This document shows, one piece after another, positions 23,478 through 59,831 of a DNA stretch of 64,000 nucleotides; the stretch's first letter is position 1, and each line of letters begins with the position of its first letter. The position numbers were made by a program, and so were the translations under genes. Below the pieces are notes generated by a model, which was given only the letters and a program-made list of their open reading frames with translations, did no database searches and had not been told where the DNA came from. The DNA comes from an uncultured Oscillospiraceae bacterium (GTDB lineage Bacteria; Bacillota; Clostridia; Oscillospirales; Oscillospiraceae), in the NCBI GenBank assembly GCA_964630255.1, contig CAZVRP010000002.1, positions 1,774 to 65,773 on the forward strand. The letters run 5' to 3'.

Positions 23478-23506
23478 CCCAGGAGGAGCGGCAAGCTCCT
23501 CCTGGG
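23478..23506. terminator. Bidirectional terminator between convergent genes
   Basis: CCCAGGAGGAGC-ggcaa-GCTCCTCCTGGG, a 12-bp stem with T-rich runs on both sides. Confidence 0.75.
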
Positions 23507-23942: not shown

Positions 23943-24731
23943 TCAAGGAAAATCTTCATAGCTTTTGTCCAGCGCCCTCAATTCCGCCAGGGTGTCGATC
24001 TCGACGATATCCCCGGGGGCGCACAGCCGCGCCCGAACGGCGTACTGATCCGGGTATAGGTTCAATGGCACCTGCTCAAAGAAGATATCCCGGCCTCCAG
24101 GCGCATTGAACGCTTCCCGGATATGACCTGCCAGTCGGGCGCCGTCCGCAGCCGTCCAGTAAGACAGCACGAACATCTGACAGCAGTCCTCTCCGCCCTT
24201 TTGCACGGACCGGATGCGGCCTTCTCCGTCCACGGTGAAGCACCAGTCGTCAGTGCGTTCCACCGGCAGGGCCAGAAAGTTGGACTCATACTGGTATTTG
24301 GTGATGAGTCCGGGATCAGACAGCAGCAAATCCGCCTCCATCACATAGGCGTTTTGCAGATGCTCCGCCGCCAGCAGCGTGGAGTAAATGGCGTTGGTCC
24401 GGGCGTACAGGCCGTTTTCAATAAATTGCACGGTCGGGTATTTTTCCAGCAGGACATTGAACATCTCCGCCTTATAGCCCCGGACGATGTATATCTCCTC
24501 AATGCCGGCGGCCGTCACCGCGTCCAGCAGAGAGTCGATGATGCGCCTTCCATGCACCGTCACCAGAGGCTTGGGAATCCGCTCTGTCAGAGGCGCCATG
24601 CGGCTGCCAAACCCGGCGGCCATGAATACGGCCCGCCGCACCCGATAAGGCTCCAGCGCCGCCAGCTCCGCCTCTGTGGCCAGGCCAAGCCGCTCTTTTC
24701 CCGTCAGCCGGTCAAACTCCGCTCTCGTCAT
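23943..24731 (-). CDS. LicC-like phospho-alcohol (phosphocholine-type) cytidylyltransferase
   Basis: The NTP-transferase motif is AVFMAAGFGSRMAPLTERIPKPLV. The LicC-like body is IVRGYKAEMF...NAIYS...MEADLL. The start overlaps the kinase gene stop. Confidence 0.75.
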   Translation of the reverse strand: MTRAEFDRLTGKERLGLATEAELAALEPYRVRRAVFMAAGFGSRMAPLTERIPKPLVTVHGRRIIDSLLDAVTAAGIEEIYIVRGYKAEMFNVLLEKYPTVQFIENGLYARTNAIYSTLLAAEHLQNAYVMEADLLLSDPGLITKYQYESNFLALPVERTDDWCFTVDGEGRIRSVQKGGEDCCQMFVLSYWTAADGARLAGHIREAFNAPGGRDIFFEQVPLNLYPDQYAVRARLCAPGDIVEIDTLAELRALDKSYEDFP

Positions 24732-25642
24732 ACCGCCGCCTCCCCATAATGGGCCATGCGCTCAAGGCTGTCCCGGGCGTAGGTGACGCCCAACAGAGCA
24801 TAGTCCCGGTAAAAGGCACGGCTATCTGGCTCCATCTTTGCCTTGAACACGCTCCAGGCGCCCCACATAATGGCCACGGCGGCACAAAAGCCGAAAAGCT
24901 CCCTGCACTCACCGGCTGTGGGCTCCCGGTCCAGATACATCCCCAGCAGCTTCACGCAGGCGGCCTCGTCCAATTCTCCGTCATGGCAGAAGTCCCCCAG
25001 GTCCTCCATGGGCACGCTGACGGCGGCGTACTCCCAGTCGATCAGAGCCGGGGTCCGGCCCGCCGGAAACAGAAAGTTGTGGGGCAGGCTGTCCCCATGG
25101 ACCACCTGGAATCGGCTCTCGTCCTCATAGAGCTTTGAGCAGGCGGCAATGACCGTCTCACGCACGTTCCAGAAATCACGGGGATAAAACTCGTTTCCAT
25201 CCACCCTCTCCACACACTGGATGTAGTACGTCAGCCGGTCCAGAGCCGTATTGCGCTTTTCTCCCCGCAGACGCAGCCCATGAAACCGGCGCAAAAGCGC
25301 CATCGCGCCGCGCAGCTCGCTTTCATCAGATGTATCGACCACATGGCAGTCCGGCCAGTACTCCGTTACACGCACACCTGTATCCGGGTCAAAATAACAT
25401 ATAATATCCGTGATGTTCTCATGCCGCAGCCGCGCATACAAGGCGCACTCCGCCCGGCGGTCGCAGAACATTTCCGTGCCCCGGCCGGGTACCCTGAGCA
25501 GATAGTCGCCCTGGTCCGTGCGGAACACATATGTATCGTTGGATATGCCTCGGCCCGGATTATCATAGGCGTCCAACACACTGTCCGGGGACATATCCAT
25601 CACCTGAAGGAACAGCTCCGTTATCTCTTTATTCACTCCCAT
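24728..25642 (-). CDS. Choline/ethanolamine-kinase-like (LicA/APH fold) kinase
   Basis: Start at MGVNKEITE (25642). Brenner motif is VVHGDSLPHNFLF. Choline-kinase motif is LIDWEYAAVSVPMEDLG. Confidence 0.75.
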   Translation of the reverse strand: MGVNKEITELFLQVMDMSPDSVLDAYDNPGRGISNDTYVFRTDQGDYLLRVPGRGTEMFCDRRAECALYARLRHENITDIICYFDPDTGVRVTEYWPDCHVVDTSDESELRGAMALLRRFHGLRLRGEKRNTALDRLTYYIQCVERVDGNEFYPRDFWNVRETVIAACSKLYEDESRFQVVHGDSLPHNFLFPAGRTPALIDWEYAAVSVPMEDLGDFCHDGELDEAACVKLLGMYLDREPTAGECRELFGFCAAVAIMWGAWSVFKAKMEPDSRAFYRDYALLGVTYARDSLERMAHYGEAAV

Positions 25643-25658
25643 GGACAAGAACCTTTCC

Positions 25659-27236
25659 TCAGATGAACGCCCTGCGGAACAGGCGGTTCCATACGCTCCG
25701 GCACAGCAGTCCCAGCGCGCCGCAGGTCTTTCCTTCAAAAAGCCTGCCCGCCAGGTATAGGGCCTTGACCCGGATAGCGCCGATATCCTCCGCCGTGAGA
25801 GGATCGCCGTCCAGGACCACAAAATCCGCGATCTTTCCCACAGTCAGGCTCCCCCGCTCCTTCTCATCAAAGCTCATATAGGCGGGGTTGTAGGTGATCA
25901 TCCGCAGGGCGTCCAGCCGGTCAAGCCTCTCATCCGGGTCTGGATGACTGGTGGAGCAGGCCATGGCCCGCAGAGGGTCCGGCCTGGTGCACGGCCCGTC
26001 CGATCCGTCCCCCATCACGATGCTCAGCCTGCTGAGGCTCCCCAGGGGGTTGAGTCTGGCCGCCCGTTCCGCGCCCAGGATGCGGTCCAAATATTCCTGT
26101 GGCTCCTGCTTCCAGTATATAAAGGGCGACTGGACCGCCAGGCACAGCCCAAGCTTCTTCACCCGCTCCATCTGGTCCGGGTGGATCATGCAGGCGTGAA
26201 TCATCACATGCCGGGCGTCGGTCCATGGCTTGTCCGCCATGGCCGCCTCATAGGCGGTGATACACTGCTCCACCGCCGCGTCGCCGATAGCATGCATGGA
26301 TATCTGCAGGCCCATCCGGTTGGCCCGGACGGCGAAGTCGCTCACCTGCTCCTGGGTGTAATAGAGTATCCCCTTGTTCTCCGGGTCGTTGGCATAGGGC
26401 TCCAGCAGCGCCGCATCCTCCGATCCGAAGCAGCCGTCCAAGGCCAGCTTGAAGCATCCCCCTACCCGGGGCAGCTTGCGTTTTTTTACCGCCTCCAGAT
26501 CCATGGTCTGGAAGAAGATACGGTATGCCTGGGGCAGACCCGGCGCCAGAATGTTTATCATATCCACATCCAGGTCCCCGGGATAGCCTACGCCCTCCAC
26601 GTTGTGAACCAGACCGATGCCCTTCTCCGCCAGAGCCGCAGCCCCCTTGGACAGGCCCCGCACCACGTCCATAATGGGGATCTTGGCCGTGACCTCGTTG
26701 ACGCCCTTGAAAAAGGCGTTCTGATACAGCCAGCCTGTCTCGGCGTCGCAGCCCGGATCGGACTTGACCTCATCGGACAGCATGGCCAGCATGGCGCTGT
26801 TGCACACGGCCGCGTGTCCGTCGTACTTCATGACCACCAGAGGACGGTCCGTCCACTTGTCCATGTCCTTCCGCTCCGGCAGACGCCCCTCCGCCACCGT
26901 GTGGGCGGAGCAGCCGTAGCCCATGAGTACTCTGGCCTTGGGGTGGGCGACGGCATAGGCGTGGACGATGGACGCCGCCTCGTCAAAGCTGGCGGCGTCC
27001 ATGAGATAAAAGGTCTGCTCAAAGGTGCACAGGGACTCAAAGTGCATGTGGGTGTCTCCAAAGGCAGGAGTCACCACAGTCCCGCCCAGATCAACGCGCC
27101 GGGCGCTCTGATACCGCGCCGGAACGTCGTCAGCCTCCCCCAGCCAGACAATCCGCCCCTTTTTCACCGCCATGGCGGTGAAAAACCGATTCTCCGGTTC
27201 GCAGGAGATGAACCTCGCATTGGTATAAAGCTCCAT
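25659..27236 (-). CDS. Amidohydrolase-3 (YtcJ-like metal-dependent hydrolase)
   Basis: 525 aa. N-terminal metal motif is PAFGDTHMHF. Further motifs are ...SMHAIGDAAV... and ...VLDGDPL at the C-terminus. Confidence 0.8.
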   Translation of the reverse strand: MELYTNARFISCEPENRFFTAMAVKKGRIVWLGEADDVPARYQSARRVDLGGTVVTPAFGDTHMHFESLCTFEQTFYLMDAASFDEAASIVHAYAVAHPKARVLMGYGCSAHTVAEGRLPERKDMDKWTDRPLVVMKYDGHAAVCNSAMLAMLSDEVKSDPGCDAETGWLYQNAFFKGVNEVTAKIPIMDVVRGLSKGAAALAEKGIGLVHNVEGVGYPGDLDVDMINILAPGLPQAYRIFFQTMDLEAVKKRKLPRVGGCFKLALDGCFGSEDAALLEPYANDPENKGILYYTQEQVSDFAVRANRMGLQISMHAIGDAAVEQCITAYEAAMADKPWTDARHVMIHACMIHPDQMERVKKLGLCLAVQSPFIYWKQEPQEYLDRILGAERAARLNPLGSLSRLSIVMGDGSDGPCTRPDPLRAMACSTSHPDPDERLDRLDALRMITYNPAYMSFDEKERGSLTVGKIADFVVLDGDPLTAEDIGAIRVKALYLAGRLFEGKTCGALGLLCRSVWNRLFRRAFI

Positions 27237-27250
27237 GCCGCTATCCTCCC

Positions 27251-29059
27251 TCAGCCGATATGTATCTGCTCCAGAGCGTCATACAGCGCCTGGTTGTCCG
27301 TCTCGTCCCGGACGGCCAGACGGATGAAGTCCCCGCCGCCGAAGCCGTTTTTTGCTGACAGGTCCTTGATGAGCAGATCGTTATTTTTCAAAAGCATATT
27401 GGCCAAATCCTTGGAGCGTATGCCCTCCACCCGGCACATGATGTAGTTGGCCTGCGAGGGATAGGGCTTCAAAAAGGGGAAGGAGGCCAGTTTTTCCGCC
27501 ATCTTGGTCCGCTGGCGGACGATCTCGTCGCAGGCCGCCTCGTAATGGGCGGCGTACAGACCGTAGATCTGGAAGAAATACTCACCAAAGGAGTTGATGT
27601 TCCAGATGGGCAGCAGACCGCGCAGTTTCTCCATCCAGGCCCGGTCGGCGCAGGCGGCCACACCCAGCCGCAGGCCGGGGACGCCATAGCTCTTGCTGAC
27701 GCTCTTGATCACCATCATGTTGGGGTATGTTTCCAGGATTTCATTGTCCAGCAGGGTGAACCGCATCGGTCCTTCAGCAAAATCCACGAAGGACTCGTCC
27801 ACCACGAACCTCGTCCCGTACTCCCGGCAGATCTCCGCCAGCTCCAGGACCTGCTCCCGGGTCAAAAACGCGCCGCTGGGATTGTCGGGATTGATGATGA
27901 CCAGCTCGTCCATCTCCCGGGCGGCCCGGCGAAGCTCGTCCATGTCGAAGCGGTAATCATGGGCCGCTCCGTTCAGGGGGACGATCTCACACTTGGGGAA
28001 GCAGCGGATATACTCGTTGAAGGCGGGGATGGAAATGGCCATGCGCCCTTTGACCGTCCGGCCCAGGGCATTAATGAGCTCGGCGGCGCCGTTGCCCGCC
28101 AAAAGATAGTCCTCCTTCACCCCGAACATCTTCCCCGCCACCAGCTTCTGCACATACATACCAGAGGGGTAGTCCGTCAGGAGGGTATGGAAGAAATACT
28201 CCATCTGCCTGACCATTTTGGGAGGTGGAAAATAGGGATTGACCAGATAGCAGAAATCCTTCAGGCCGTTGAACCGCCAATAGCCTCCAAAGTGGAGTTC
28301 ATAGGCCCGGAGCCGGTCCTCGTCGGCGGCGAAGAGGGTATTGGCGATGTCCAGGTCCTGCACATCGTCGATCTCATACCATTTCATATCCCCCATCTCA
28401 AACGCCTTGAGTCCGGCGAAGGGCAGATGGGCCAGGGCCTTGAGGACCATCTCATAGTATTGGTTCTCCCCATAGGCGCGGATGTATGCTTCCATGAACG
28501 GCAAATACTGCTTCCGGGAGAACGCCCGGCTGAATTTATAGACGTTCACCGTCTTATAGTACTGGTCGGCGCTGTCGAAGCGGAAATCCTTTTTCTCCAC
28601 GAACTCCCGGATGACGCCGTCCTCCCCCACCAAAGTCATGGTGCCGTCCATCCACTGCTCGAACTTGGCCACCGCCACCATATTGGGTTCCGGCGCGTCC
28701 ACCATGCGGCGGATGAGCGACCGATCATAGATCAGGTCGGATTCCAGCAGGATGGTATCATCCCGGGCCAGCTGCTCCCGGGCCAGATACAGAGAATAGA
28801 TATTATTGGTGCTGGCATAGTCCGGGTTTTCCACGAATTCCAGCTCAAAATCCCCCAGCTTCTCCCGGGCGAACGCTTGCAGCTTCTCGCCCTCATAGCC
28901 TGTCACGATGACGAATTTATGTATGCCCGCCAGGCGCAGCGCGTCCGCCGCATGCTCCAGCAGCGTCTGTCCGCCCACCTTCACCATGCACTTGGTCTGA
29001 CCGTCCGTATAGGCGCCCAGACGCTTGCCCATGCCGGCCGCCAGCATCAATGCCTGCAT
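27251..29059 (-). CDS. Bifunctional N-terminal nucleotidyltransferase / C-terminal class I-II PLP enzyme (HisC/CobD fold)
   Basis: The N-terminus is MQALMLAAGMGKRLGAYTDGQTKCMVKV (NTP-transferase G-loop). The C-terminal half has the PLP-lysine region IKSVSKSYGVPGLRLGVAAC, plus NPDNPSG. Confidence 0.8.
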   Translation of the reverse strand: MQALMLAAGMGKRLGAYTDGQTKCMVKVGGQTLLEHAADALRLAGIHKFVIVTGYEGEKLQAFAREKLGDFELEFVENPDYASTNNIYSLYLAREQLARDDTILLESDLIYDRSLIRRMVDAPEPNMVAVAKFEQWMDGTMTLVGEDGVIREFVEKKDFRFDSADQYYKTVNVYKFSRAFSRKQYLPFMEAYIRAYGENQYYEMVLKALAHLPFAGLKAFEMGDMKWYEIDDVQDLDIANTLFAADEDRLRAYELHFGGYWRFNGLKDFCYLVNPYFPPPKMVRQMEYFFHTLLTDYPSGMYVQKLVAGKMFGVKEDYLLAGNGAAELINALGRTVKGRMAISIPAFNEYIRCFPKCEIVPLNGAAHDYRFDMDELRRAAREMDELVIINPDNPSGAFLTREQVLELAEICREYGTRFVVDESFVDFAEGPMRFTLLDNEILETYPNMMVIKSVSKSYGVPGLRLGVAACADRAWMEKLRGLLPIWNINSFGEYFFQIYGLYAAHYEAACDEIVRQRTKMAEKLASFPFLKPYPSQANYIMCRVEGIRSKDLANMLLKNNDLLIKDLSAKNGFGGGDFIRLAVRDETDNQALYDALEQIHIG

Positions 29060-29078: not shown

Positions 29079-29876
29079 TCAATCTTCCCGGAGCAAACGG
29101 GCGTACAACCCTAAAAAATCGTAGCCCATCCGCCGGTGCAGAGACAGGGTGTTCTCATTTTCCGCCCCCAGAAAGGCAAGTCCGCGCTTTCCCTCCCGCA
29201 GCACCAGATTCCATGTACTGGCGGTGATGGCCCGGCCCAGTCCCCTGCCCCGGAGCTCTGTATCCGTGACCAAGCCGCTGATGACGGCCAGCTCCTCCGT
29301 CTCCGCGCTGGTGGCGTTGGTGGCCACCAGGCGGCCTGTCTCGTCCCGCATGACGAACAGGCGGCCAAAGCCGGTCTTCAAGCGGTCCGTGAGCTGCTGA
29401 CACAGGCTCTCATAGGTGTAGACGCTGTTATAGATCGGCTCCTTCATCATCAGAGCCGCGATCTCCGGCACATCGGCCATGCCCGCCTGCCGCACGGCCA
29501 GGTCGGACCTTCCGTCCATCAGGCGGCTGGTGGTGATGATATGGCTCAGCTCATAGGCGTACGTATCCTTCGTCTTTCCCAGCAGCTTGTCGATCGTCGC
29601 CTGAGAACCGGTGACGCACTTGGGCCGCAGCTCGTCTATCAGGCCCAGGGCGTCGCGCCAAGGGAACTTGTCCCGGCTGTAGAGATGCAGAGTGTCAAAA
29701 TACCGGTAGGCCACGCCCTCGATCTCCTCGCCGTCCCCGCTGATCCAAAGGCCCACATCCGGACCCTGTGCGCCGCATTCCAGCAGGTCCATATAGAGAT
29801 AGAAGCACTGGAACTTGCCCTCGCCTATGTACTCCACCACCTGGGGGATATAAGAATCGTCACATTTGATCGTCAC
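29079..29876 (-). CDS. GNAT family acetyltransferase
   Basis: The C-terminal acetyl-CoA motif is ISGLVTDTELRGRGLGRAITAST...LHRRMGY. Confidence 0.65.
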   Translation of the reverse strand: MTIKCDDSYIPQVVEYIGEGKFQCFYLYMDLLECGAQGPDVGLWISGDGEEIEGVAYRYFDTLHLYSRDKFPWRDALGLIDELRPKCVTGSQATIDKLLGKTKDTYAYELSHIITTSRLMDGRSDLAVRQAGMADVPEIAALMMKEPIYNSVYTYESLCQQLTDRLKTGFGRLFVMRDETGRLVATNATSAETEELAVISGLVTDTELRGRGLGRAITASTWNLVLREGKRGLAFLGAENENTLSLHRRMGYDFLGLYARLLRED

Positions 29877-29879
29877 GGC

Positions 29880-31769
29880 TCAGATTTCCCTTTCCTTCTT
29901 TTGATTTTCCAGCATCCGCCCGATGAGGTATTGGGCGGCGCATTTTCCGCTCTCGCCGAAGTTATATATCCGCTCCCGGCGCACCTGCTCCAGCGTCTCG
30001 GCCCACTCCCTGCGGCCGGACACCATGCCGTCGGCGGTCGCCGCCGCCTTTTTCCGGACCTCTCCCGGCTCCAGGGCCACGCCGATGACGCTCCGTATCT
30101 TCGCGTCCGGGGCGCACCGGGCGATGTCCTCATCGGACCAGTCCTCGTTCACCCGCTTCTGAGGGGTGTTGATGAACAGCACCGGCTTTTTCGTCGCCAG
30201 GGCGTACTCATAGCCGATGTTGGACCAATCCGTCACCAGCACATCCGCCGCGAACACCGTCTCATTGGAGCTGAAATTCAGCTGGAAACGGAAGCGGGCC
30301 GCGTCATAGTTCCTGCAGTCCGCCATGAGCTTTTCCAGCCGCTGGGGGAAGCGGCGTATGTACTGGGGATGAGGCCGGACCGTCACATCGTATCCCGCAG
30401 CCAGAAGGGGCTCCGCCAGATCGGCGAGGCAGCTCTCCAGAATGTTCCCCGCCTGCCAGGAGGGCGCGATCAGCACCGTCTTCACAGCGTGCACGGTCTT
30501 TTCCATCCGGTCATACTCCGCCGCCATGTTATCCACCACGCCATAGCCGCAGGGCACCAGCTTCTGGTCGGGCAGGCCGTATTTTTCGTTGTAGCCCCGC
30601 ATCTCCACGTCGAAGCCGGGCGTGGGGGTCAGCAGGGTGTCGAAGTGGTCCAGCGCGCCCTTGCGCAGCGTCACAAGGCCGGAAAAGATGCCGTGGAACA
30701 CATACACGTACTCGATGTCCTTGCGGACGTAGCTGCGCTTATAGTGATAGGTGTTCAGATCCGGCATGGTCATCAAAACGATGTCCGCGTCCATCTTCAT
30801 GAACAGGGTGATGAGCCGCCGCTCGCCGATATAATAAGGCTGGATACGCGGCTCCTTTTCCGCGATGGCGAATATCTGATCTTCCGGGTCGCTGGTGACA
30901 TAGTTTATCACCACGTTCGTCCGGGCCAGCAGCGCCTCGATGATGTTCTGGAAATATTTATAAAAACCGCTGGCCTCGGAATAGAACACCAGCCGCTTGT
31001 TGGCCACGGAGAAGAACCGCTTGTAATCGGCCTTCTCCCGCTTTTTCAGTTCTTTTGTCTGGGCCTGTCCAAACTGATCCAGATCCGCCAGCTCTTTCCG
31101 GCTTTGTTCCAGCGCCTCATAGTCCACATACTTTTTCGGCGGCATGACGGCGTTGCAGGCCAGCTGCACCAGGATGGAGAACAGGTTGGAGAATATCCAG
31201 TACAGCGCCACGCCTGTGGAAACAAAAATACCCAGCACAAAGGATATGCCAACGGATACGCCGTTGGTGGACATCTGTTCCGCCCGGCTCTGCTCCCGCT
31301 GGAGGGGATTGATCCGGTTCTGGGCAAAGCTCAGCACAATGGCCGCCAGGCCCGCTCCCAATGGCATGAGCCAGGTCCAGCCCCCGTCCCGGCAGGGGAT
31401 GAGGCCCAGCTTGGGCGCCGCGCCGGAGTCAGTGATGGTGTGGATGACCCCGATGAGTCCCAGAAGGATGATGATCTGGATGACCAGGGGGATCATGCTC
31501 AGAAGGGGCCGGTAATGGTGGCGCTTGTACAGCGCCGCCTGCTCGTCTCCGATGCGCTCCCGGTCGCCGTAATACTCCGCCTTGATGCGGTTCACATCCG
31601 GCATGATGGACACCATCTTCAGGCCGTTGGCGTTGGTCCACAGGGACACAGGCATCAGGATGATCTTCGTCAGCAGCGTGAACAGGGCGATCGCCGCCAC
31701 ATAGTTGGGTACCAGGGCGTAGCACCAATCCATCACATAGCCCAGGATACCCGCCAGAAAATCGATCAT
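29880..31769 (-). CDS. Fusion protein: N-terminal YidC/Oxa1 insertase domain + C-terminal TagB/TagF-type CDP-glycerol glycerophosphotransferase domain
   Basis: - Residues 1 to about 215 are YidC-like: NYVAAIALFTLLTKIILMPVSL, MPDVNRIKAEYYGD, PLLSMIPLVIQIIILLGL, GVALYWIFSNLFSILVQ.
- Residues from about 265 to 629 are TagF-like: VLIAPSWQ, VTVRPHPQ, VLVTDWSNIGYEYALATKKPVLFI. Confidence 0.85.
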   Translation of the reverse strand: MIDFLAGILGYVMDWCYALVPNYVAAIALFTLLTKIILMPVSLWTNANGLKMVSIMPDVNRIKAEYYGDRERIGDEQAALYKRHHYRPLLSMIPLVIQIIILLGLIGVIHTITDSGAAPKLGLIPCRDGGWTWLMPLGAGLAAIVLSFAQNRINPLQREQSRAEQMSTNGVSVGISFVLGIFVSTGVALYWIFSNLFSILVQLACNAVMPPKKYVDYEALEQSRKELADLDQFGQAQTKELKKREKADYKRFFSVANKRLVFYSEASGFYKYFQNIIEALLARTNVVINYVTSDPEDQIFAIAEKEPRIQPYYIGERRLITLFMKMDADIVLMTMPDLNTYHYKRSYVRKDIEYVYVFHGIFSGLVTLRKGALDHFDTLLTPTPGFDVEMRGYNEKYGLPDQKLVPCGYGVVDNMAAEYDRMEKTVHAVKTVLIAPSWQAGNILESCLADLAEPLLAAGYDVTVRPHPQYIRRFPQRLEKLMADCRNYDAARFRFQLNFSSNETVFAADVLVTDWSNIGYEYALATKKPVLFINTPQKRVNEDWSDEDIARCAPDAKIRSVIGVALEPGEVRKKAAATADGMVSGRREWAETLEQVRRERIYNFGESGKCAAQYLIGRMLENQKKEREI

Positions 31770-31793
31770 TCGTTCATCTCTCCGTTTGCGCCA

Positions 31794-33557
31794 TTAATAG
31801 AAGGAGTCATACAACGGCTCAATGGCGTCGGCCACGCCATAATAATACCAGTACCGCTCCTTGCTCATGATGGTATCCCGGTCGCCGTCATAGCGGAAAG
31901 TGCCGAAGACGTTGTACCGCTCGACGCCGTTGGCCTCCGCATCCCACTGGTCGATGTTGCCGATCCACTCCACCTCCGGGTAGCTGCGCATGTATCCCCA
32001 GACAGAGGTGGTGCGCATGCGGTGATCACCCTCCTCCCAATCATAGACGGTGGTGCCGTCGCAGTAATCGCTGTAATCCCCGCCCACCAGGGACAGGATG
32101 GTGGGGATGATATCCCCCTGGGCCACGGGAGCGCTGGTGGTGGTGAATTCCTCAAAGGTCTGGCCGGGCAGCTTGATGAGGAAGGCCGCCTGGAAGCACT
32201 CAAAGTATCCATGGTCGGCGGATATGATGATGGTGGCGTCGTCGTATACGCCGATCTGCTTCAGCTGGTCAAAATATTCCTCCAGGGCCAGAAGATAGCC
32301 GTGGAGCTGGTCCTCCCGGTTGGTCTCGTCCTCATCGCAGAGGTAGCCGTCATAGTCCACCACATAGGGGAAGTGAGCGCCCTGCATGTGATACCAGTTG
32401 AAGACCTTATGGTCATCGGTGAGGGTCAGCCCCTCCTCCTGGAGCGCCTCATAGAAGTCATAGTTGATGCGCAGCTTGGTCACGCCCTGATAGGCGGAGA
32501 CATCCACGATACCGCCGGTAGAGACGCAGAAAGGATTTTTCAGGATAGTAGGCATATAGCGGTACAGGGACATATCTATCAAAAACTCAAAAAACTGAGG
32601 CGTGATGACCAGATCCCCGGCCTCCACGATATTATCAGCCTTGCCCAGCATGTTCTCCGCGCCCAGGGCGGCGTAGTTGGACTCCAGGAACAGGTTCACC
32701 TGATACCCGTTTTCATGGAGCGTGTCATAGAAATTGTCGGCCTTCTCGCTGTGCCAGGCGTTGTATACCGCCTCCCTGGTGGGCACGGTGAGGTCCAGCT
32801 CATTGCCGGTGAGAAGGTACATCAAAGACGGGAAGGTGAAGGAGTACCGGGAGGACATGTTATCAAAATACAGAAAGTCCTTGAACACATCATAGAAGTG
32901 GGGGTCCCGCTCCAGCGCCTCCTCAAAGATGAGGGGAGAAAGCTGGTCAAGGGTCAGCACCAGGATATTTTCATCGCTGGAGAGGGTAAACTGCTCCTCC
33001 CCGGACAACTGGTAGTTGGGGACACTGTCGTCCTTGGGCACCCAGGTGGTCGCAAGGCTGACTCCCTGGGCCACGACCAGCGCTGCGCAGACGATGAAGC
33101 CGGCCGTACGCATGATATCCGGGAAAAACCAACCCAATGCCATGATCGCCAAAATACATATAGTCCATATAGCCAGGTTCTTATAGGCCGCCGGCGCATC
33201 GCCGCGCCAGTCGAACTCCGTACCGTCCAGTGTCCCCAGGTCGCCGTTGAGCAAAGCGCCCTGGAAATAGAAGAGCACAGAGATGCCCAGCAGCAGAGCA
33301 AACGCCAGGCGGTGGGCCTTGCCGGGGATGAGGGCGAACACCGCCGCAATCACGACAGACGCCGCAACCGTCACCCACGCAACGGAGAACAAAAGATCTC
33401 CGGCGGCGAAGGTCAGATACATCTGGTTGGCGTTCACGATATCCAGCGGGCCGAAAAACACACCTGTAAAGCACAGGAAAAACGCGGGAACGAGCAGCGT
33501 CAAAAACCGCTTGAGCCACCCTTTCCAATATCCGCCCCTTACCTTTTTCTCCTCCAT
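31794..33557 (-). CDS. LtaS/sulfatase-family membrane phosphotransferase
   Basis: The ATG at 33557 follows GGGAGG. It has five N-terminal TM segments and an extracellular sulfatase domain (LVLTLDQLSP, YSFTFPSLMYLLTG, IIISADHGY). Confidence 0.8.
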   Translation of the reverse strand: MEEKKVRGGYWKGWLKRFLTLLVPAFFLCFTGVFFGPLDIVNANQMYLTFAAGDLLFSVAWVTVAASVVIAAVFALIPGKAHRLAFALLLGISVLFYFQGALLNGDLGTLDGTEFDWRGDAPAAYKNLAIWTICILAIMALGWFFPDIMRTAGFIVCAALVVAQGVSLATTWVPKDDSVPNYQLSGEEQFTLSSDENILVLTLDQLSPLIFEEALERDPHFYDVFKDFLYFDNMSSRYSFTFPSLMYLLTGNELDLTVPTREAVYNAWHSEKADNFYDTLHENGYQVNLFLESNYAALGAENMLGKADNIVEAGDLVITPQFFEFLIDMSLYRYMPTILKNPFCVSTGGIVDVSAYQGVTKLRINYDFYEALQEEGLTLTDDHKVFNWYHMQGAHFPYVVDYDGYLCDEDETNREDQLHGYLLALEEYFDQLKQIGVYDDATIIISADHGYFECFQAAFLIKLPGQTFEEFTTTSAPVAQGDIIPTILSLVGGDYSDYCDGTTVYDWEEGDHRMRTTSVWGYMRSYPEVEWIGNIDQWDAEANGVERYNVFGTFRYDGDRDTIMSKERYWYYYGVADAIEPLYDSFY

Positions 33558-33806
33558 GGGACTATAAACCTCCCTGTTGACTTTTTCTTTGTAGCCTTGG
33601 CGCACATCATAAACAAATAGTAATATTTTTCGCTTTGCATACGACACACATTATACTACTATTTTACAACATTAAAATAATATCATGATTTTTCGCGGAT
33701 TACAACCTATTTTATGACAGTGCGCGATTTCCGCCGTTCTTCCGGGGGCAAAATGGGGGATTTTTGCAGGCAGGCAAGATTTTTCATCCATACGTGAACT
33801 TACCTA

Positions 33807-33835
33807 TTGACGGATGCCGGGAAAAAATTTATAAT
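33807..33835 (+). promoter_or_regulatory. Near-consensus sigma-A promoter (TTGACG-17-TATAAT) for the divergent acyltransferase
   Basis: TTGACGgatgccgggaaaaaattTATAAT, about 70 nt before the ATG at 33908. Confidence 0.6.
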
Positions 33836-33907
33836 TTCTTCATGAAATCTTAATGTTGTGGGGCGCAGCTTATGTCGCCCCGCAGCTATGTACAAGGAGT
33901 GTTCACC

Positions 33908-34948
33908 ATGCCGACTCTCGCCGCACCGCTGCAAGCACCCGCTCCCGCCGCCAGAAAGCGCTGGTGGCGGGCCGACAATATCCGCTGGATATTGCTTTTC
34001 AACGTCATCGCGGAGCACATGCTCACCCAGACGGACATCACCTACAACTGGCTGGTGACCGTGCTGGTGTGCTGGTCCCGCATGATAACCATGCCCGCCT
34101 TCTGCTTTTTGTCCGGGTACTTCTCCAAGAAAGGCGATAAGAGCTATCAGAGCGCTATTTTCGACTTTTTGATACCATATATCATCTTTGACACTCTGTT
34201 CGCGGCGATATTCGGCAGCTCCTCGCCCAACATCTTCTCCCCCACCTTCGCCTACTGGTATCTGCTTTGCATGTTCTGCTGGAAGATCATGACCAAGGCC
34301 CTGCAGCAGATCAAGTACATCATCCCGCTGAGCATCATTGTGGCCCTGCTTGTAGGCGGCCTGGACGATGTTGACCATTTCCTCAGTCTGAGCCGGACCA
34401 TCGGTTTCCTGCCTTTCTATGTGGTGGGCATGAAGATGAGCCGGGAGGACGTGGCCAAGCTGGAGAAGCTGCCCAAGCTCCCTGTACTGGCGGTGACCCT
34501 GGCTGTGATGGCGGTCTGGGGCTGGCTGAATGTCAAGGAATACTTCCACATCGATTTTTACTACTACTGGATGCCCTACAGCGGGGACGATACCTACTGC
34601 TATACCTTCTGGTACGGCTTCATGCTCCGGGCTCTTGGCTATGTGGTCAGCGGGCTTTTGATCGTTTTTCTGTTCTGCATGGTGCCGGATAAGTCCCTGC
34701 CCGTCATCCGGGACGGCGGCACCCGCACCATGGTCCCCTATCTGCTGCATACATACTTCATCATGAACATGAAATACCTTTACAGCTTTGTGCCCGCCCT
34801 GAACCACTGGTTCATCACCATCCCCATCGCCCTGGCCATGGGCGTGTTCCTGCTGTGGCTGCTGGGTCTGCCGGCACTGGACGAGCTATACAAGGACCTG
34901 ATGAAGTTTATAAAAAAGCTCCTTTACAAGGAGCCGGAAAAAAACTGA
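33908..34948 (+). CDS. Acyltransferase-3 family membrane O-acyltransferase
   Basis: The ATG at 33908 follows AAGGAG. Sequence: RADNIRWILLFNVIAEHML...MPAFCFLSGYF. About 10 TM segments. Confidence 0.75.
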   Translation: MPTLAAPLQAPAPAARKRWWRADNIRWILLFNVIAEHMLTQTDITYNWLVTVLVCWSRMITMPAFCFLSGYFSKKGDKSYQSAIFDFLIPYIIFDTLFAAIFGSSSPNIFSPTFAYWYLLCMFCWKIMTKALQQIKYIIPLSIIVALLVGGLDDVDHFLSLSRTIGFLPFYVVGMKMSREDVAKLEKLPKLPVLAVTLAVMAVWGWLNVKEYFHIDFYYYWMPYSGDDTYCYTFWYGFMLRALGYVVSGLLIVFLFCMVPDKSLPVIRDGGTRTMVPYLLHTYFIMNMKYLYSFVPALNHWFITIPIALAMGVFLLWLLGLPALDELYKDLMKFIKKLLYKEPEKN

Positions 34949-57487: not shown

Positions 57488-58764
57488 GGATATACCGTTT
57501 TGGAGAGGTTCCCCTGGAGGACCTTTTGATACGGACAGTGGAGACCTCCGGGGTATCGGACGCGGTGCGGGATATCATCGCAGACGTGGCCCGCCGCGGG
57601 GACGAGGCCCTCATGGACTACGCCCGCCGGTTCGACAGCTCCGCCCCAATAGCTCTGGAGGTCACCGGTGAGGAGGTAGACCGGGCCTGGGAGAGCACCG
57701 ACCCGGCCCTGCGCCAGGTGATGGAGACGGCCGCCGCCAACATCCGCGCCTTTCACGAAAGGCAGATACCCCAGGGCTACCGGCTGGAACGGCCGGACGG
57801 TTCCTTTCTGGGGGTGAAGGTCACGCCCATCGAGAAAGTGGGGCTGTGCGTGCCCGGGCACACCGCCGCCTATCCCTCCACGGTGCTGATGACAGCCATC
57901 CCGGCCAAACTGGCCGGATGCCGGGAGCTGATAATGATCTCACCTCCCGGCCCGAACGGAAAGCAGCCGGACGCCATCCTGGCCGCCGCCCGCATCGCCG
58001 GGGTGGACCGGATCTTTCGGGTGGGCGGAGCCCAGGGTGTGGCGGCTCTGGCATACGGGACGGAGACGGTCCCCCGAGTGGACAAGATCGTGGGTCCCGG
58101 CGGCGCCTATGTGGCGGAGGCCAAGCGTCAGGTTTTCGGCCGGGTGGACATCGACATGATCGCTGGCCCCAGCGAGATATTGGTGATAGCGGACGACAGC
58201 TGCGATCCCGCCCATGTGGCTGCGGACTTGTTAAGTCAGGCGGAGCACGACCGGCTCTCCGCCGCCGTGCTCATCACGGACAGCATGGCCCTGGCCCAAG
58301 CCGTGAGCGCCGAGCTTGAGCGGCAGCTCGCCCTTCTGCCCCGGGAAGATATCGCCCGGGCATCTATGGAGAGCAACGGCAAGATCATCGTGACGGAGGA
58401 CCTGCCCGCCGCTGTGGAGGCCGCGAACCTTCTGGCCCCGGAGCATCTGGAGCTGTGCGTGGACGACCCCATGCCTTATCTTGATCTGGTGCGAAACGCG
58501 GGCTCCGTGTTTTTGGGTAAGTATACCCCGGAGGCTCTGGGCGACTACCTTGCCGGACCCAACCACACCTTGCCCACCTGCGGCGCGGCCCGGTTTTCCA
58601 GCCCTCTGGGTGTGGAGGATTTCGTCAAGCGGACCCAGTATTCCTGCTACAGCGCCAAGGCTCTGGAGAGAGTCAGCGGCGACGTCGCCCTGTTCGCCCG
58701 GGCGGAGGGTCTGGAGGGCCATGCCCGCTCCGCCCTCATCCGATTTGAGGAGGCGGGACGATGA
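57484..58764 (+). CDS. hisD: Histidinol dehydrogenase
   Basis: 426 aa: GGAQGVAALAYGTE...VDKIVGPGGAYV...SQAEHD...APEHLEL. Confidence 0.95.
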   Translation: MRIYRFGEVPLEDLLIRTVETSGVSDAVRDIIADVARRGDEALMDYARRFDSSAPIALEVTGEEVDRAWESTDPALRQVMETAAANIRAFHERQIPQGYRLERPDGSFLGVKVTPIEKVGLCVPGHTAAYPSTVLMTAIPAKLAGCRELIMISPPGPNGKQPDAILAAARIAGVDRIFRVGGAQGVAALAYGTETVPRVDKIVGPGGAYVAEAKRQVFGRVDIDMIAGPSEILVIADDSCDPAHVAADLLSQAEHDRLSAAVLITDSMALAQAVSAELERQLALLPREDIARASMESNGKIIVTEDLPAAVEAANLLAPEHLELCVDDPMPYLDLVRNAGSVFLGKYTPEALGDYLAGPNHTLPTCGAARFSSPLGVEDFVKRTQYSCYSAKALERVSGDVALFARAEGLEGHARSALIRFEEAGR

Positions 58765-59831
58765 GCCGTTTTTTTAGCCGCGGATTTGCCGATCTGAAGG
58801 CCTATACCCCCGGCGAGCAGCCCCGGAGCGGGCAGTATGTGAAGCTCAACACCAACGAGTCCCCCTTCCCCCCCTCTCCTCAGGTTCTGGAGGCTGCGGC
58901 GCGGGAGGCCCGGCGGCTGAATCTCTACTGTGACCCGGCCTGCACGGAGCTGCGGCAGGCAGCCGCGGAGCTCCACGGCCTTGATCCGGAGAATATTCTG
59001 CCTGTCAACGGCTCGGACGAGGCTCTGTATTTCGCTTTCATGGCCTTTTGCGACGAAACCCGGCCCATGGCCTTCTCCGACATCACCTATGGTTTTTACC
59101 CGGTATACGCCGCCGTGAACCGTATCCCAGCCCACGTGATACCTTTGAAAGAGGACTTTTCCCTGGACCCGGCGGACTATATGGGTCTTGGCGAAAACAT
59201 GGTCATCGCCAACCCAAACGCCCCCACAGGCATGGCCCTGCCCCGGGACCGGATTGAGGATATCATCCGCTCCAATCCGGACAATGTGGTCGTCATTGAC
59301 GAGGCGTATGTGGATTTCGGCGGAGAGAGCTGCGTCCCTCTCATACACAGGTATGACAACCTTCTGGTGATACAGACCTTCTCCAAATCCCGCTCCCTGG
59401 CGGGGGCCCGGCTGGGCTTTGCCCTGGGCAGCCGGGAACTCATCGCCGACCTGAACACCCTCAAATTCTCCACGAATCCCTATAACGTCAACCGCATGAC
59501 CCAGGCCGCCGGCGCGGCGGCCATCGCCTCCAACGACTACTACATGGCAAACTGCCGCGCGATCATGCAGATCCGGTCCTATACCGCCAGGGCCCTGGAG
59601 GACATGGGCTTTGAGGTGCTCCCCTCCGCCGCGAACTTCCTCTTCGCCCGGCGCCCTGACACGGACGGGGCCGAACTGCATGCCGCCCTTCGGGCCCGGC
59701 GTGTGCTGGTGCGCCGTTTTGACGCGCCCCGCATCCGGGACTGGCTTCGCATCACCGTGGGCTCGCGGGAGCAGATGGACGCCCTGCTGGCCGCCGTCAG
59801 GGCTATTTTGACTGAAAGAGAGGTCATCTGA
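58761..59831 (+). CDS. hisC: Histidinol-phosphate aminotransferase
   Basis: 356 aa. Motifs: NPNAPTG, and QTFSKSRSLAGARLGF containing the PLP lysine. Confidence 0.9.
   Translation: MSRFFSRGFADLKAYTPGEQPRSGQYVKLNTNESPFPPSPQVLEAAAREARRLNLYCDPACTELRQAAAELHGLDPENILPVNGSDEALYFAFMAFCDETRPMAFSDITYGFYPVYAAVNRIPAHVIPLKEDFSLDPADYMGLGENMVIANPNAPTGMALPRDRIEDIIRSNPDNVVVIDEAYVDFGGESCVPLIHRYDNLLVIQTFSKSRSLAGARLGFALGSRELIADLNTLKFSTNPYNVNRMTQAAGAAAIASNDYYMANCRAIMQIRSYTARALEDMGFEVLPSAANFLFARRPDTDGAELHAALRARRVLVRRFDAPRIRDWLRITVGSREQMDALLAAVRAILTEREVI

Follow-up and report, generated by a model that had tools for sequence, protein, structure and literature searches.

In the window, i.e. the stretch of 64,000 nucleotides from an uncultured Oscillospiraceae bacterium analysed in this study, one gene joins an N-terminal nucleotidyltransferase domain with a C-terminal PLP domain of the CobD type. 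The fusion protein is likely to make a CDP-linked amino-alcohol for the cell envelope. This idea was already part of the original prediction and is supported by the gene context, with LicD- and TagF-type transferases as partners and as fused domains. As best reading, to which we give slightly more than an even chance, phosphoserine is converted to CDP-ethanolamine for the decoration of a wall polymer.

Fusion gene and distribution of the family

The open reading frame was present as predicted and lies on the minus strand, which had not been named before (Table 1). All motifs quoted for it were recovered, namely LAAGMGKRLG...K, NPDNPSG and the PLP-lysine box SVSKSYGVPGLRLG. A coding signal was obtained for the gene (GC3 0.80 vs. 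GC2 0.35), it is preceded by the ribosome-binding site GGGGAG, and 14-19 nt separate it from the neighbouring gene on either side. The catalytic residues are intact, R13, K23, E106 and D108 in the N-terminal domain and N393, D421, K456, R464 and R580 in the PLP domain. The AF2 model, built with an alignment (pLDDT 97, pTM 0.91), confidently predicts a single rigid body of two domains.

Full-length homologues of the fusion protein number more than 8000, and at least 580 matches were obtained among species-representative genomes. The family is spread over Clostridia, Bacteroidota, Spirochaetes, Akkermansia, Saccharibacteria and Campylobacterales. Clostridium culturomicium (locus L019), Ancylomarina euxinus M1P (L086) and Prevotella sp. 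MGM2 (L073) are among the cultured bacteria that carry it. A literature search for a characterised member yielded nothing relevant.

Table 1 Features of the fusion gene and of the surrounding operon (positions in the window)
Feature	Position	Strand	Basis
Terminator-like hairpin, strong and bidirectional, closing the operon	23478..23506	minus	12-14 bp stem, then T-run
Stand-alone LicC-like cytidylyltransferase, 4-nt overlap with the kinase stop codon (ATGA)	23943..24731	minus	PDB
LicA-like choline/ethanolamine kinase, 304 aa (public-collection call), P0271	24728..25642	minus	Pfam Choline_kinase and APH, PDB
Amidohydro_3 metal hydrolase, 525 aa, opening a separable three-gene module	25659..27236	minus	Pfam
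Fusion gene, 602 aa, cytidylyltransferase and CobD-like PLP decarboxylase domains (predicted)	27251..29059	minus	Pfam, profiles, AF2
CobD-type PLP domain, aa 263-602	27254..28273	minus	TIGR01140, PDB, Foldseek, tree
K456 codon, PLP Schiff-base lysine	27692..27694	minus	Aligns to SeCobD K216 (Salmonella) and SMUL_1544 K244
LicC/PntC-like nucleotidyltransferase domain, aa 1-245	28325..29059	minus	Pfam NTP_transf_3 and NTP_transferase, PDB matches
LLESDL, aa 104-109, within LLESDLIYD	28733..28750	minus	PntC alignment
G-loop LAAGMGKRLG...K, aa 6-23 (LAAGMGKRLG aa 6-15, then K23)	28991..29044	minus	PntC alignment
GNAT/FR47-like acyltransferase, 265 aa, directly upstream of the fusion gene	29079..29876	minus	Pfam
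YidC-like membrane domain fused to TagF-type CDP-alcohol phosphotransferase	29880..31769	minus	Pfam, profiles
Membrane transferase of the LtaS/sulfatase fold, opening the operon	31794..33647	minus	Weak Pfam Sulfatase and Phosphodiest matches
Promoter-like site ahead of the operon, TTGTAA-17-TATTAT with TG	33677..33705	minus	Consensus match alone
Acyl_transf_3 membrane acyltransferase, divergent	33872..34948	plus	GC3 test, Pfam

Nucleotidyltransferase domain and the rival phosphonate route

In the N-terminal domain, NTP_transf_3 was assigned by Pfam to aa 3-134 (E 1.3e-16). Among solved structures it matched LicC (1jyk, 57 bits) and PntC (6pd1, 47 bits, alignment covering aa 2-239). The catalytic pair of PntC is retained, as R13 aligns to R15 and K23 to K25, and among 84 members of the fusion family these residues were found in 83 and 82, respectively. 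The stretch LLESDLIYD is identical to residues 102-110 of Tde-PntC. In it, E106 corresponds to the amine ligand E104 (retained in 81/84 members) and D108 is the conserved acidic residue (83/84). E104 of PntC binds the primary amine of aminoethylphosphonate, and the role of K25, equivalent to K38 of FrbH, has been described (PMC6697681). With a G-loop carrying Arg and Lys and with the acidic motif for head group and metal (LLESD in PntC, xDxD in LicC), the domain has the sequence characteristics of a LicC/PntC-type cytidylyltransferase and is predicted to act as such.

The FrbH-like layout that had been proposed was confirmed. In FrbH of FR-900098 biosynthesis in Streptomyces rubellomurinus, a cytidylyltransferase is followed by a CobD-like PLP decarboxylase at the C-terminus, and the domain order of the fusion protein is the same (PMC8976061). 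Both steps of FrbH proceed consecutively on 2-amino-4-phosphonobutyrate and give a CMP-linked amine (PMC8976061). In this comparison, which follows the published description of FrbH, cytidylylation comes first in FrbH. Its substrate is the C-P isostere of phosphoserine, and by analogy the fusion protein appears to be the phosphate-ester counterpart of FrbH. While FrbH handles a phosphonate and belongs to a PEP-mutase-dependent antibiotic cluster, no Ppm was found in the 89% complete assembly with the fusion gene, which stands in a LicD/TagF envelope context.

A phosphonate route as in FrbH or PntC-AEPT, in which the protein would activate and tailor a C-P compound whose synthesis is encoded at another site of the genome, would suit the FrbH domain order and the identity of the N-terminal motif with that of the phosphonate-specific PntC. 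However, the reported lack of a PEP mutase in the window holds for the whole assembly (89% complete), in which no match to TIGR02320 was found. PEP mutase and phosphonopyruvate decarboxylase were also absent among the leading Pfam-annotated neighbour gene families of related loci. PntC-AEPT of Treponema denticola (Tde1415, 6PD1/6PD2) has the same LLESDLIYD motif and R/K catalytic pair and likewise fuses a LicC-like cytidylyltransferase to an amine-making PLP enzyme for cell-surface tailoring (PMC6697681). In contrast to the class I/II C-terminal domain of the fusion protein, its PLP domain belongs to the class V aminotransferases; it is active on phosphonoacetaldehyde and needs PEP mutase. The N-terminal domains alone align (aa 2-239), the TM of the whole proteins is 0.35 and the C-terminal domain is of class I/II; thus, membership in PntC-AEPT was rejected. 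With no TIGR02320 match in the assembly, of which 11% is missing, the phosphonate route was provisionally rejected as well and seems highly improbable.

Furthermore, SerC, the enzyme making phosphoserine, is encoded in the genome (472 bits). LicD was not found in the 89% complete assembly, and no TagD was detected at or above its cut-off. Because of the completeness of 89%, the absences of Ppm, LicD and TagD are provisional.

PLP domain: CobD or HisC

Aminotran_1_2 was assigned to aa 315-591 (E 1.7e-28), with NPDNPSG at aa 390-396. The Schiff-base lysine K456 is contained in SVSKSYGVPGLRLG (aa 453-466). Following the suggestion to compare this domain with CobD and HisC, profiles, structures and a tree were used, and the domain did not cluster with HisC but fell into the CobD decarboxylase branch. 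It scored 175.2 bits with TIGR01140 (CobD, cut-off 290.55) and 124.3 bits with the hisC model TIGR01141 (cut-off 276.55). As 175.2 bits is below the cut-off of TIGR01140, it is not CobD proper. The best-scoring solved relative is SMUL_1544 (6oux, 150 bits, 27-29% identity), and 102 bits were obtained for SeCobD (1lc5). With Foldseek, the TM was 0.85-0.86 for SeCobD (rmsd 2.3 Å) and 0.72-0.80 for HisC. In a maximum likelihood tree calculated with IQ-TREE, HisC is split off, with a support of 100/99, from a branch made up of CobD and the fusion domains. Within this branch, the fusion domains form a single clade (99/95), and SMUL_1544 is the sister of that entire clade (100/99). The CobD residue is present at 14 of the 16 columns that discriminate CobD from HisC, and at the position of F424, Tyr (DEAY) is found in each of the 21 HisC rows. 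Six states (L272, S299, S423, K452, I485 and K570) are common to the fusion PLP domain and SMUL_1544 only. Membership in the CobD decarboxylase branch is supported.

A HisC-like transaminase would instead aminate a phospho-ketone, e.g. dihydroxyacetone phosphate to serinol phosphate. From this, the N-terminal domain would make CDP-serinol, a diol resembling glycerol, which TagF-type enzymes could polymerise to an amino teichoic-acid analogue. HisC chemistry leads from a phospho-ketone to a phospho-amine, the folds are very similar (TM values above), the two share the class I/II fold and substrates of the phosphate-ester type, and a Campylobacter DHAP transaminase making serinol phosphate is known. 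Nevertheless, HisC forms a separate clade, and the position in the decarboxylase branch, the CobD-type columns, the replacement of Tyr by Phe and the lower hisC score all speak against a transaminase. A bona fide HisC is encoded in the his operon elsewhere in the window (58761-59831; 288 bits, above the cut-off). Identity with HisC was rejected on the basis of the tree, the hisC score under the cut-off, F424 and this separate HisC, and CDP-serinol formation is improbable.

Two decarboxylases are closest to the domain. CobD, the L-threonine-O-3-phosphate decarboxylase of Salmonella enterica (1LC5/1LC7), has the fold, the PLP Lys, the equivalents of R224 and R337 and the signature residues in common with it, but belongs to a separate clade, and the fusion gene is without cobamide context. 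SMUL_1544 (SmCobD, 6OUX) of Sulfurospirillum multivorans, a decarboxylase governing norcobamide synthesis, represents the nearest solved relative. It is said, in the work of Keller et al. from 2016 and 2019, to act on Ser-P in norcobamide synthesis. Unlike the fusion protein, SMUL_1544 is a stand-alone enzyme of a cobamide operon without nucleotidyltransferase and retains Arg355 at the position of Lys565 in the fusion family.

While the PLP lysine K216, the PLP-phosphate Arg R224 and the substrate-phosphate Arg R337 of SeCobD have their equivalents in K456, R464 and R580, the other substrate-phosphate Arg, R323, is replaced by Lys565. This position holds the second phosphate-binding Arg in CobD and HisC, and a Lys of the K565 type was found in 74/84 members. 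Hence, the phosphate pocket differs throughout the family from that of CobD and SMUL_1544. The altered pocket could fit a CDP-linked substrate, in accordance with the FrbH reaction order, or another phospho-amino acid.

Operon and related loci

Upstream of the fusion gene, the operon encodes the GNAT, the YidC-TagF protein and the LtaS-like transferase. GNAT adjoins the fusion gene in six loci, and a natural NT-PLP-GNAT fusion exists (P0231). The YidC-TagF gene is the sole Glyphos_transf gene found in the assembly. The LtaS-like gene is conserved in L145, L042, L016 and L017, and the divergent arrangement of Acyl_transf_3 recurs in L145. Two further open reading frames were discarded by the GC3 filter: 33800-34807 on the minus strand is the shadow of the plus-strand Acyl_transf_3 gene, and 29136-33620 on the plus strand is an antisense shadow in DNA of 60% GC. 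A search of the operon for Rfam families gave no match.

Related loci were gathered with an alignment of 14 closer sequences (n = 80, at least five phyla). In 56 of the 80, the fusion gene has a CDP-alcohol phosphotransferase nearby, of the LicD type in 35 and of the TagF type in 21, never both together; L086 has a divergent TagF that is not among the 21 counted. LicD is the commonest neighbour of the family (35-37 loci). In natural fusions, the protein is joined to LicD, TagF, GT4, GNAT or SAM-methyltransferase domains. For the CDP-serinol route these partners point in two directions. TagF-type enzymes, present in at least 21 loci, normally polymerise diol phosphates, whereas the LicD partners in 35 loci and the methyltransferase fusions suit a head group that is a mono-alcohol, e.g. 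ethanolamine or choline.

The genes downstream of the fusion gene form a module of their own. The LicA-like kinase (Pfam Choline_kinase, 40.7 bits; PDB 3dxq, 61 bits, and LicA 4r77, 56 bits) showed only a faint match to the homoserine kinase model thrB_alt (20 bits). The stand-alone LicC-like protein matched LicC (1jyk) with 82.7 bits over the full length. A homologue of the amidohydrolase was found in 0/80 fusion loci and one of the kinase in 2/80, and the amidohydrolase-LicA-LicC module also occurs without the fusion gene (L146). It had been predicted that the adjacent kinase works together with the fusion protein. This was not supported: the kinase is ATGA-coupled to its own LicC partner in a separable module, and with 2/80 loci and the occurrence in L146, feeding of the fusion protein by the kinase was rejected as a general mechanism. 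Since most related loci are without the kinase, a standing metabolite such as phosphoserine is suggested as substrate.

Proposed function

For the conversion of phosphoserine, the following steps are proposed; substrate, order of the two reactions and acceptor are those we infer. O-phospho-L-serine, a standing intermediate supplied by SerC, would be decarboxylated to phosphoethanolamine by the C-terminal CobD-type domain. The N-terminal LicC/PntC-type domain would then form CDP-ethanolamine with CTP. The phospho-head group would be moved onto a wall or membrane glycopolymer by the YidC-fused TagF-type transferase, a role that LicD may take in other lineages, and the amine is probably N-acylated by the GNAT encoded next to the fusion gene. 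The module of amidohydrolase, LicA and LicC is probably a salvage route into the same kind of CDP-donor pool. In the Lic pathway of Streptococcus pneumoniae (LicA, LicC, LicD), a CDP-amino-alcohol donor is likewise made by a LicC-type enzyme and used for transfer to a glycan, and the operon also carries a true LicA/LicC-like pair. The Lic pathway, however, depends on imported choline and a kinase, while the fusion protein would obtain its phospho-amine de novo through decarboxylation. It counts against the ethanolamine reading that CDP-glycerol or CDP-ribitol are the classical substrates of TagF-type enzymes and that ethanolamine cannot be polymerised.

Phosphoserine, phosphothreonine and phosphohomoserine cannot be told apart by sequence. 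The same chemistry with O-phospho-L-threonine or O-phospho-L-homoserine would give CDP-1-amino-2-propanol or CDP-3-aminopropanol, and in this operon the phospho-amino acid might come from the LicA-like kinase. L-Thr-P is the substrate of CobD proper, the close fold match described above, the kinase gene is the second one downstream of the fusion gene here and the first one in the Clostridium loci L019 and L024, and its faint thrB_alt match as well as K565 in place of Arg, in a pocket unlike that of CobD and SMUL_1544, would agree with such substrates. On the other hand, homologues of the kinase are missing in 78 of the 80 loci and phosphothreonine is no standing metabolite. The kinase is much closer to LicA and choline/ethanolamine kinases (56-61 bits) and forms a coupled pair with a LicC of its own. 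Furthermore, the PLP domain has SMUL_1544, the Ser-P enzyme, as its sister in the tree and not the Thr-P CobD clade, and the methyltransferase fusions suit a series from ethanolamine to choline. Phosphothreonine or phosphohomoserine is an unlikely substrate.

Together with phosphoserine as substrate, a broader picture may be drawn, which we rate as possible rather than probable. The family may represent a widespread, kinase-independent route from the central metabolite phosphoserine to CDP-ethanolamine, extended by the fused methyltransferases to N-methylated or choline-type donors. In the operon of this Oscillospiraceae bacterium, N-acylation by GNAT and installation by the unusual YidC-fused TagF with an LtaS-like enzyme may constitute an undescribed system for the modification of wall polymers.

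Biological significance

Phosphocholine and phosphoethanolamine displayed by bacteria influence how innate immunity recognises the cell, how well it resists cationic peptides and how it adheres. To our knowledge, LicA/LicC is the only well-described bacterial route to such CDP-donors, and it needs imported choline. Likewise, we know of no described enzyme with the present pair of domains other than FrbH, an enzyme of phosphonate antibiotic synthesis. If phosphoserine is converted to CDP-ethanolamine as proposed, the origin of FrbH would be explained as an enzyme of primary metabolism recruited to a C-P isostere. Thousands of proteins annotated as "aminotransferase class I/II-fold PLP-dependent enzyme" would obtain a function. 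Hundreds of species could then produce these decorations by themselves, and gut, rumen and oral bacteria could place zwitterionic phospho-amines on their surface glycans without choline from the host.

Results

The open reading frame of the original prediction is a real gene on the minus strand and encodes 602 aa. The motifs quoted for it are present, with LAAGMGKRLG at aa 6-15 followed by K23, NPDNPSG at aa 390-396 and SVSKSYGVPGLRLG at aa 453-466. Pfam assigned NTP_transf_3 and NTP_transferase to aa 3-156 and Aminotran_1_2 to aa 315-591. Because of its codon-position GC (GC3 0.80, GC2 0.35), its GGGGAG ribosome-binding site and the gaps of 14-19 nt to both neighbours, the gene is considered genuine and translationally packed. 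AlphaFold2 with an 84-sequence alignment reached a pLDDT of 97 and a pTM of 0.91, which indicates that the two domains form one rigid body in the model.

The C-terminal PLP domain was scored higher by the NCBIfam profile for CobD (TIGR01140, 175 bits) than by hisC (124 bits). Both equivalog cut-offs were missed, and the fusion was thus rejected as CobD or HisC proper. The closest solved structure was 6OUX (150 bits), SMUL_1544, named by Foldseek "a decarboxylase from Sulfurospirillum multivorans", followed by 3FTB and Salmonella CobD (SeCobD) with 102 bits and true HisC with about 73 bits. Fold comparison gave TM 0.85-0.86 and rmsd 2.3 Å for SeCobD versus TM 0.72-0.80 for HisC structures. A tree (IQ-TREE, LG+C20; ultrafast bootstrap/SH-aLRT) was calculated from the C-domains of 28 fusion proteins, 19 candidate CobD and 20 HisC sequences from clostridia, and four PDB sequences taken from HMMER alignments. 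HisC was split from CobD plus the fusion domains (100/99); the latter were monophyletic (99/95) and grouped with SMUL_1544 (100/99). The CobD residue occurs in 14 of the 16 columns discriminating CobD from HisC, including D268, P345, F347, E349, N393, W486 and N589, and the position of F424 is occupied by Tyr in every HisC row. L272, S299, S423, K452, I485 and K570 are common only to the fusion and SMUL_1544. The second phosphate-binding Arg (SeCobD R323, SMUL_1544 R355) is replaced by Lys565, with Lys in 74/84 family members, and R580 (R337 of SeCobD) is kept in 83/84.

The genome has its own HisC (288 bits, above cut-off), and nothing else in the window is a closer paralogue of the PLP domain; CobD above cut-off was not found in the 89%-complete assembly. 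A HisC identity was rejected on the grounds of the profile scores, the tree split, the 14 CobD columns and this separate genuine HisC. The comparison of profiles, structures and active-site residues proposed originally led to a CobD-type domain, which, judged from sequence, is a decarboxylase-type enzyme and not HisC. A HisC-like transamination to serinol phosphate is regarded as highly improbable. In the alignment of 84 diverse family members the PLP lysine, K456, is absent in about nine, with E, V or T instead; misalignment, degeneration or loss of catalytic function could account for these.

The N-terminal domain aligned with pneumococcal LicC (57 bits) and, over its whole length, with the PntC domain of Tde1415, the PntC-AEPT fusion of Treponema denticola (47 bits). 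R13 and K23, the catalytic pair, align with PntC R15 and K25; the latter is the counterpart of the essential K38 of FrbH (PMC6697681). PntC has the identical segment LLESDLIYD at residues 102-110, in which E104 binds the primary amine of aminoethylphosphonate (PMC6697681), whereas LicC has Asp at this position. E203 (in YYE) is a further conserved Glu and probably the equivalent of PntC E196, the local alignment being off by one there.

Gene calls filtered by GC3 resulted in one minus-strand operon. Two shadow ORFs in this 60% GC DNA were excluded by codon-position GC. Elsewhere in the window, an EF-G/GTP_EFTU-like translational GTPase (domains III, IV, C) carries a C-terminal YacP-like NYN nuclease domain, an unusual combination.

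Features of the operon, the window and related loci (L-numbers, other genomes)
Feature	Position	Strand	Remark
Promoter-like site	33705-33677	-	operon start
LtaS-like transferase		-	operon gene 1
YidC::TagF	29880-31769	-	operon gene 2
GNAT		-	operon gene 3
Fusion gene	27251-29059	-	operon gene 4
Amidohydro_3		-	operon gene 5
LicA-like kinase		-	operon gene 6
LicC-like transferase		-	operon gene 7
123-aa ORF		-	operon gene 8
Amidohydrolase-kinase-LicC trio	23943-27236	-	
Strong terminator-like hairpin	23506-23478	-	operon end
Acyl_transf_3 acyltransferase	33872-34948	+	real gene; upstream, divergent
Shadow ORF, 1494 aa	29136-33620	+	excluded
Shadow ORF, 335 aa	33800-34807	-	excluded
hisC	58761-59831	+	
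GTPase-NYN ORF, 854 aa	18654-21218	+	
Trio without fusion gene	L146:2649-5951		
YidC::TagF in relatives	L035:5178-7916; L145:3844-5745		
OCD/mu-crystallin reductase	L031:6321-7265; L003:8867-9814		upstream of fusion in L003
Octopine-dehydrogenase family	L086:11803-12924		
Kinase or LicC-LicA protein	L019:11867-12874; L024:11918-13513		Clostridium

The kinase matched the choline/ethanolamine kinases 3dxq (61 bits) and LicA (56 bits), and its gene shares 4 nt with the start of a full-length LicC homologue (82.7 bits). For Amidohydro_3 the nearest structures, 3icj and 3igh, are both uncharacterised. The close relative L145 kept the entire seven-gene operon and L146 has the trio alone. Thus, the operon is a composite of a de novo module (fusion gene, GNAT, transferases) and a separable amidohydrolase-LicA-LicC module, which probably serves salvage and into which Amidohydro_3 may feed an amino-alcohol cleaved from an amide.

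The fusion architecture is very common, with more than 8000 protein clusters scored, 607 representatives at E <= 1e-30 (50%-identity library) and at least 580 confirmed matches among species-representative genomes. Carriers are Oscillospiraceae, Lachnospiraceae, Clostridium, Christensenellaceae, Treponema, Prevotella, Bacteroides, Akkermansia, Saccharibacteria and Campylobacterales. At the 77 loci with usable gene calls, the commonest genes up to four positions from the fusion were LicD (37 loci, mostly immediate neighbour), TagF-like (19), OCD/mu-crystallin reductase (16, directly downstream), YidC::sulfatase (13), Wzx flippase (10), epimerase (9) and GNAT (6). By tblastn, 56 of 80 loci had a LicD-type (35) or TagF-type (21) transferase and none had both; an extra divergent TagF and an octopine-dehydrogenase-family gene in one locus were missed by this search. 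The two types seem to replace each other on the acceptor side of a single donor. The adjacent LicA-like kinase, originally considered a possible partner of the fusion, was not supported in this role: homologues occur in 2/80 loci, and it belongs to the separable trio. The amidohydrolase had no homologue in the 80 loci.

Discussion

Longer natural fusions were found as NT-PLP-methyltransferase (four clusters), NT-PLP-GNAT, NT-PLP-LicD, TagF-PLP and GT4-NT-PLP (NT, nucleotidyltransferase), one with the PLP domain alone and the others with the two-domain core. As Rosetta-stone links, they connect the product with two processes, namely CDP-alcohol phosphotransfer to glycans and the N-tailoring of a free amine (methylation, acylation or reductive alkylation). 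The OCD/mu-crystallin reductase adjoins the fusion in 16-18 loci, mostly directly downstream, and in L086 the octopine-dehydrogenase-family gene does so; in these lineages this suggests an opine-type reductive N-carboxyalkylation of the head-group amine. In two Clostridium genomes a choline/ethanolamine kinase or a LicC-LicA fused protein directly follows the fusion gene with no other transferase between, which fits a salvage kinase as a further supplier of phosphoethanolamine to the N-domain.

In the window and about 21 related loci, a YidC/Oxa1-type insertase domain forms one protein with a TagF-type CDP-alcohol phosphotransferase; in 13-15 others it is joined to a sulfatase/LtaS-fold domain instead. 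To our knowledge, no wall-polymer transferase with a YidC domain as its membrane part has been described; the domain might be a membrane anchor or a gate for lipid-linked substrates. In the 89%-complete assembly YidC::TagF was the sole Glyphos_transf gene found, and neither LicD nor TagD above cut-off was found.

Reportedly, SMUL_1544 was described by Keller et al. in 2016 and 2019 as L-serine-O-phosphate decarboxylase, the source of ethanolamine phosphate for norcobamides. The title of a publication states that its gene product "governs norcobamide biosynthesis". SerC is present in our genome (472 bits), therefore phosphoserine is made. Phosphoserine is somewhat favoured as the specific substrate; phosphothreonine or phosphohomoserine is rather unlikely. 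The absence of a PEP mutase, originally noted for the window, extended to the whole assembly (89% complete), and a phosphonate route is hardly to be expected.

Decarboxylation followed by cytidylylation is favoured for the fusion enzyme, because two acidic ligands of the free amine suit a small head group that has lost its carboxylate better than a substrate that retains it. For FrbH, cytidylylation comes first (PMC8976061). Compared by description only, both would work alike, but the predicted substrate here is a phosphate ester and that of FrbH its C-P isostere. A cell-surface context is common to the fusion, PntC-AEPT and the Lic pathway. The fusion fell below the CobD and HisC equivalog cut-offs, it differs from FrbH in that no PEP mutase was found in the 89%-complete assembly, and its PLP domain is not of the class V type of PntC-AEPT. 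Literature searches found no characterised member of its family.

In the proposed pathway, SerC-made phosphoserine would lose CO2 on PLP at K456, and the N-domain would convert the resulting phosphoethanolamine with CTP to CDP-ethanolamine. GNAT may acylate the amine, YidC::TagF would pass the phospho-head group to an acceptor, and the LtaS-like enzyme may carry it on to the cell exterior. In general, it is quite probable that the fusion enzyme converts a phospho-amino acid to a CDP-amino-alcohol for decoration of the envelope.
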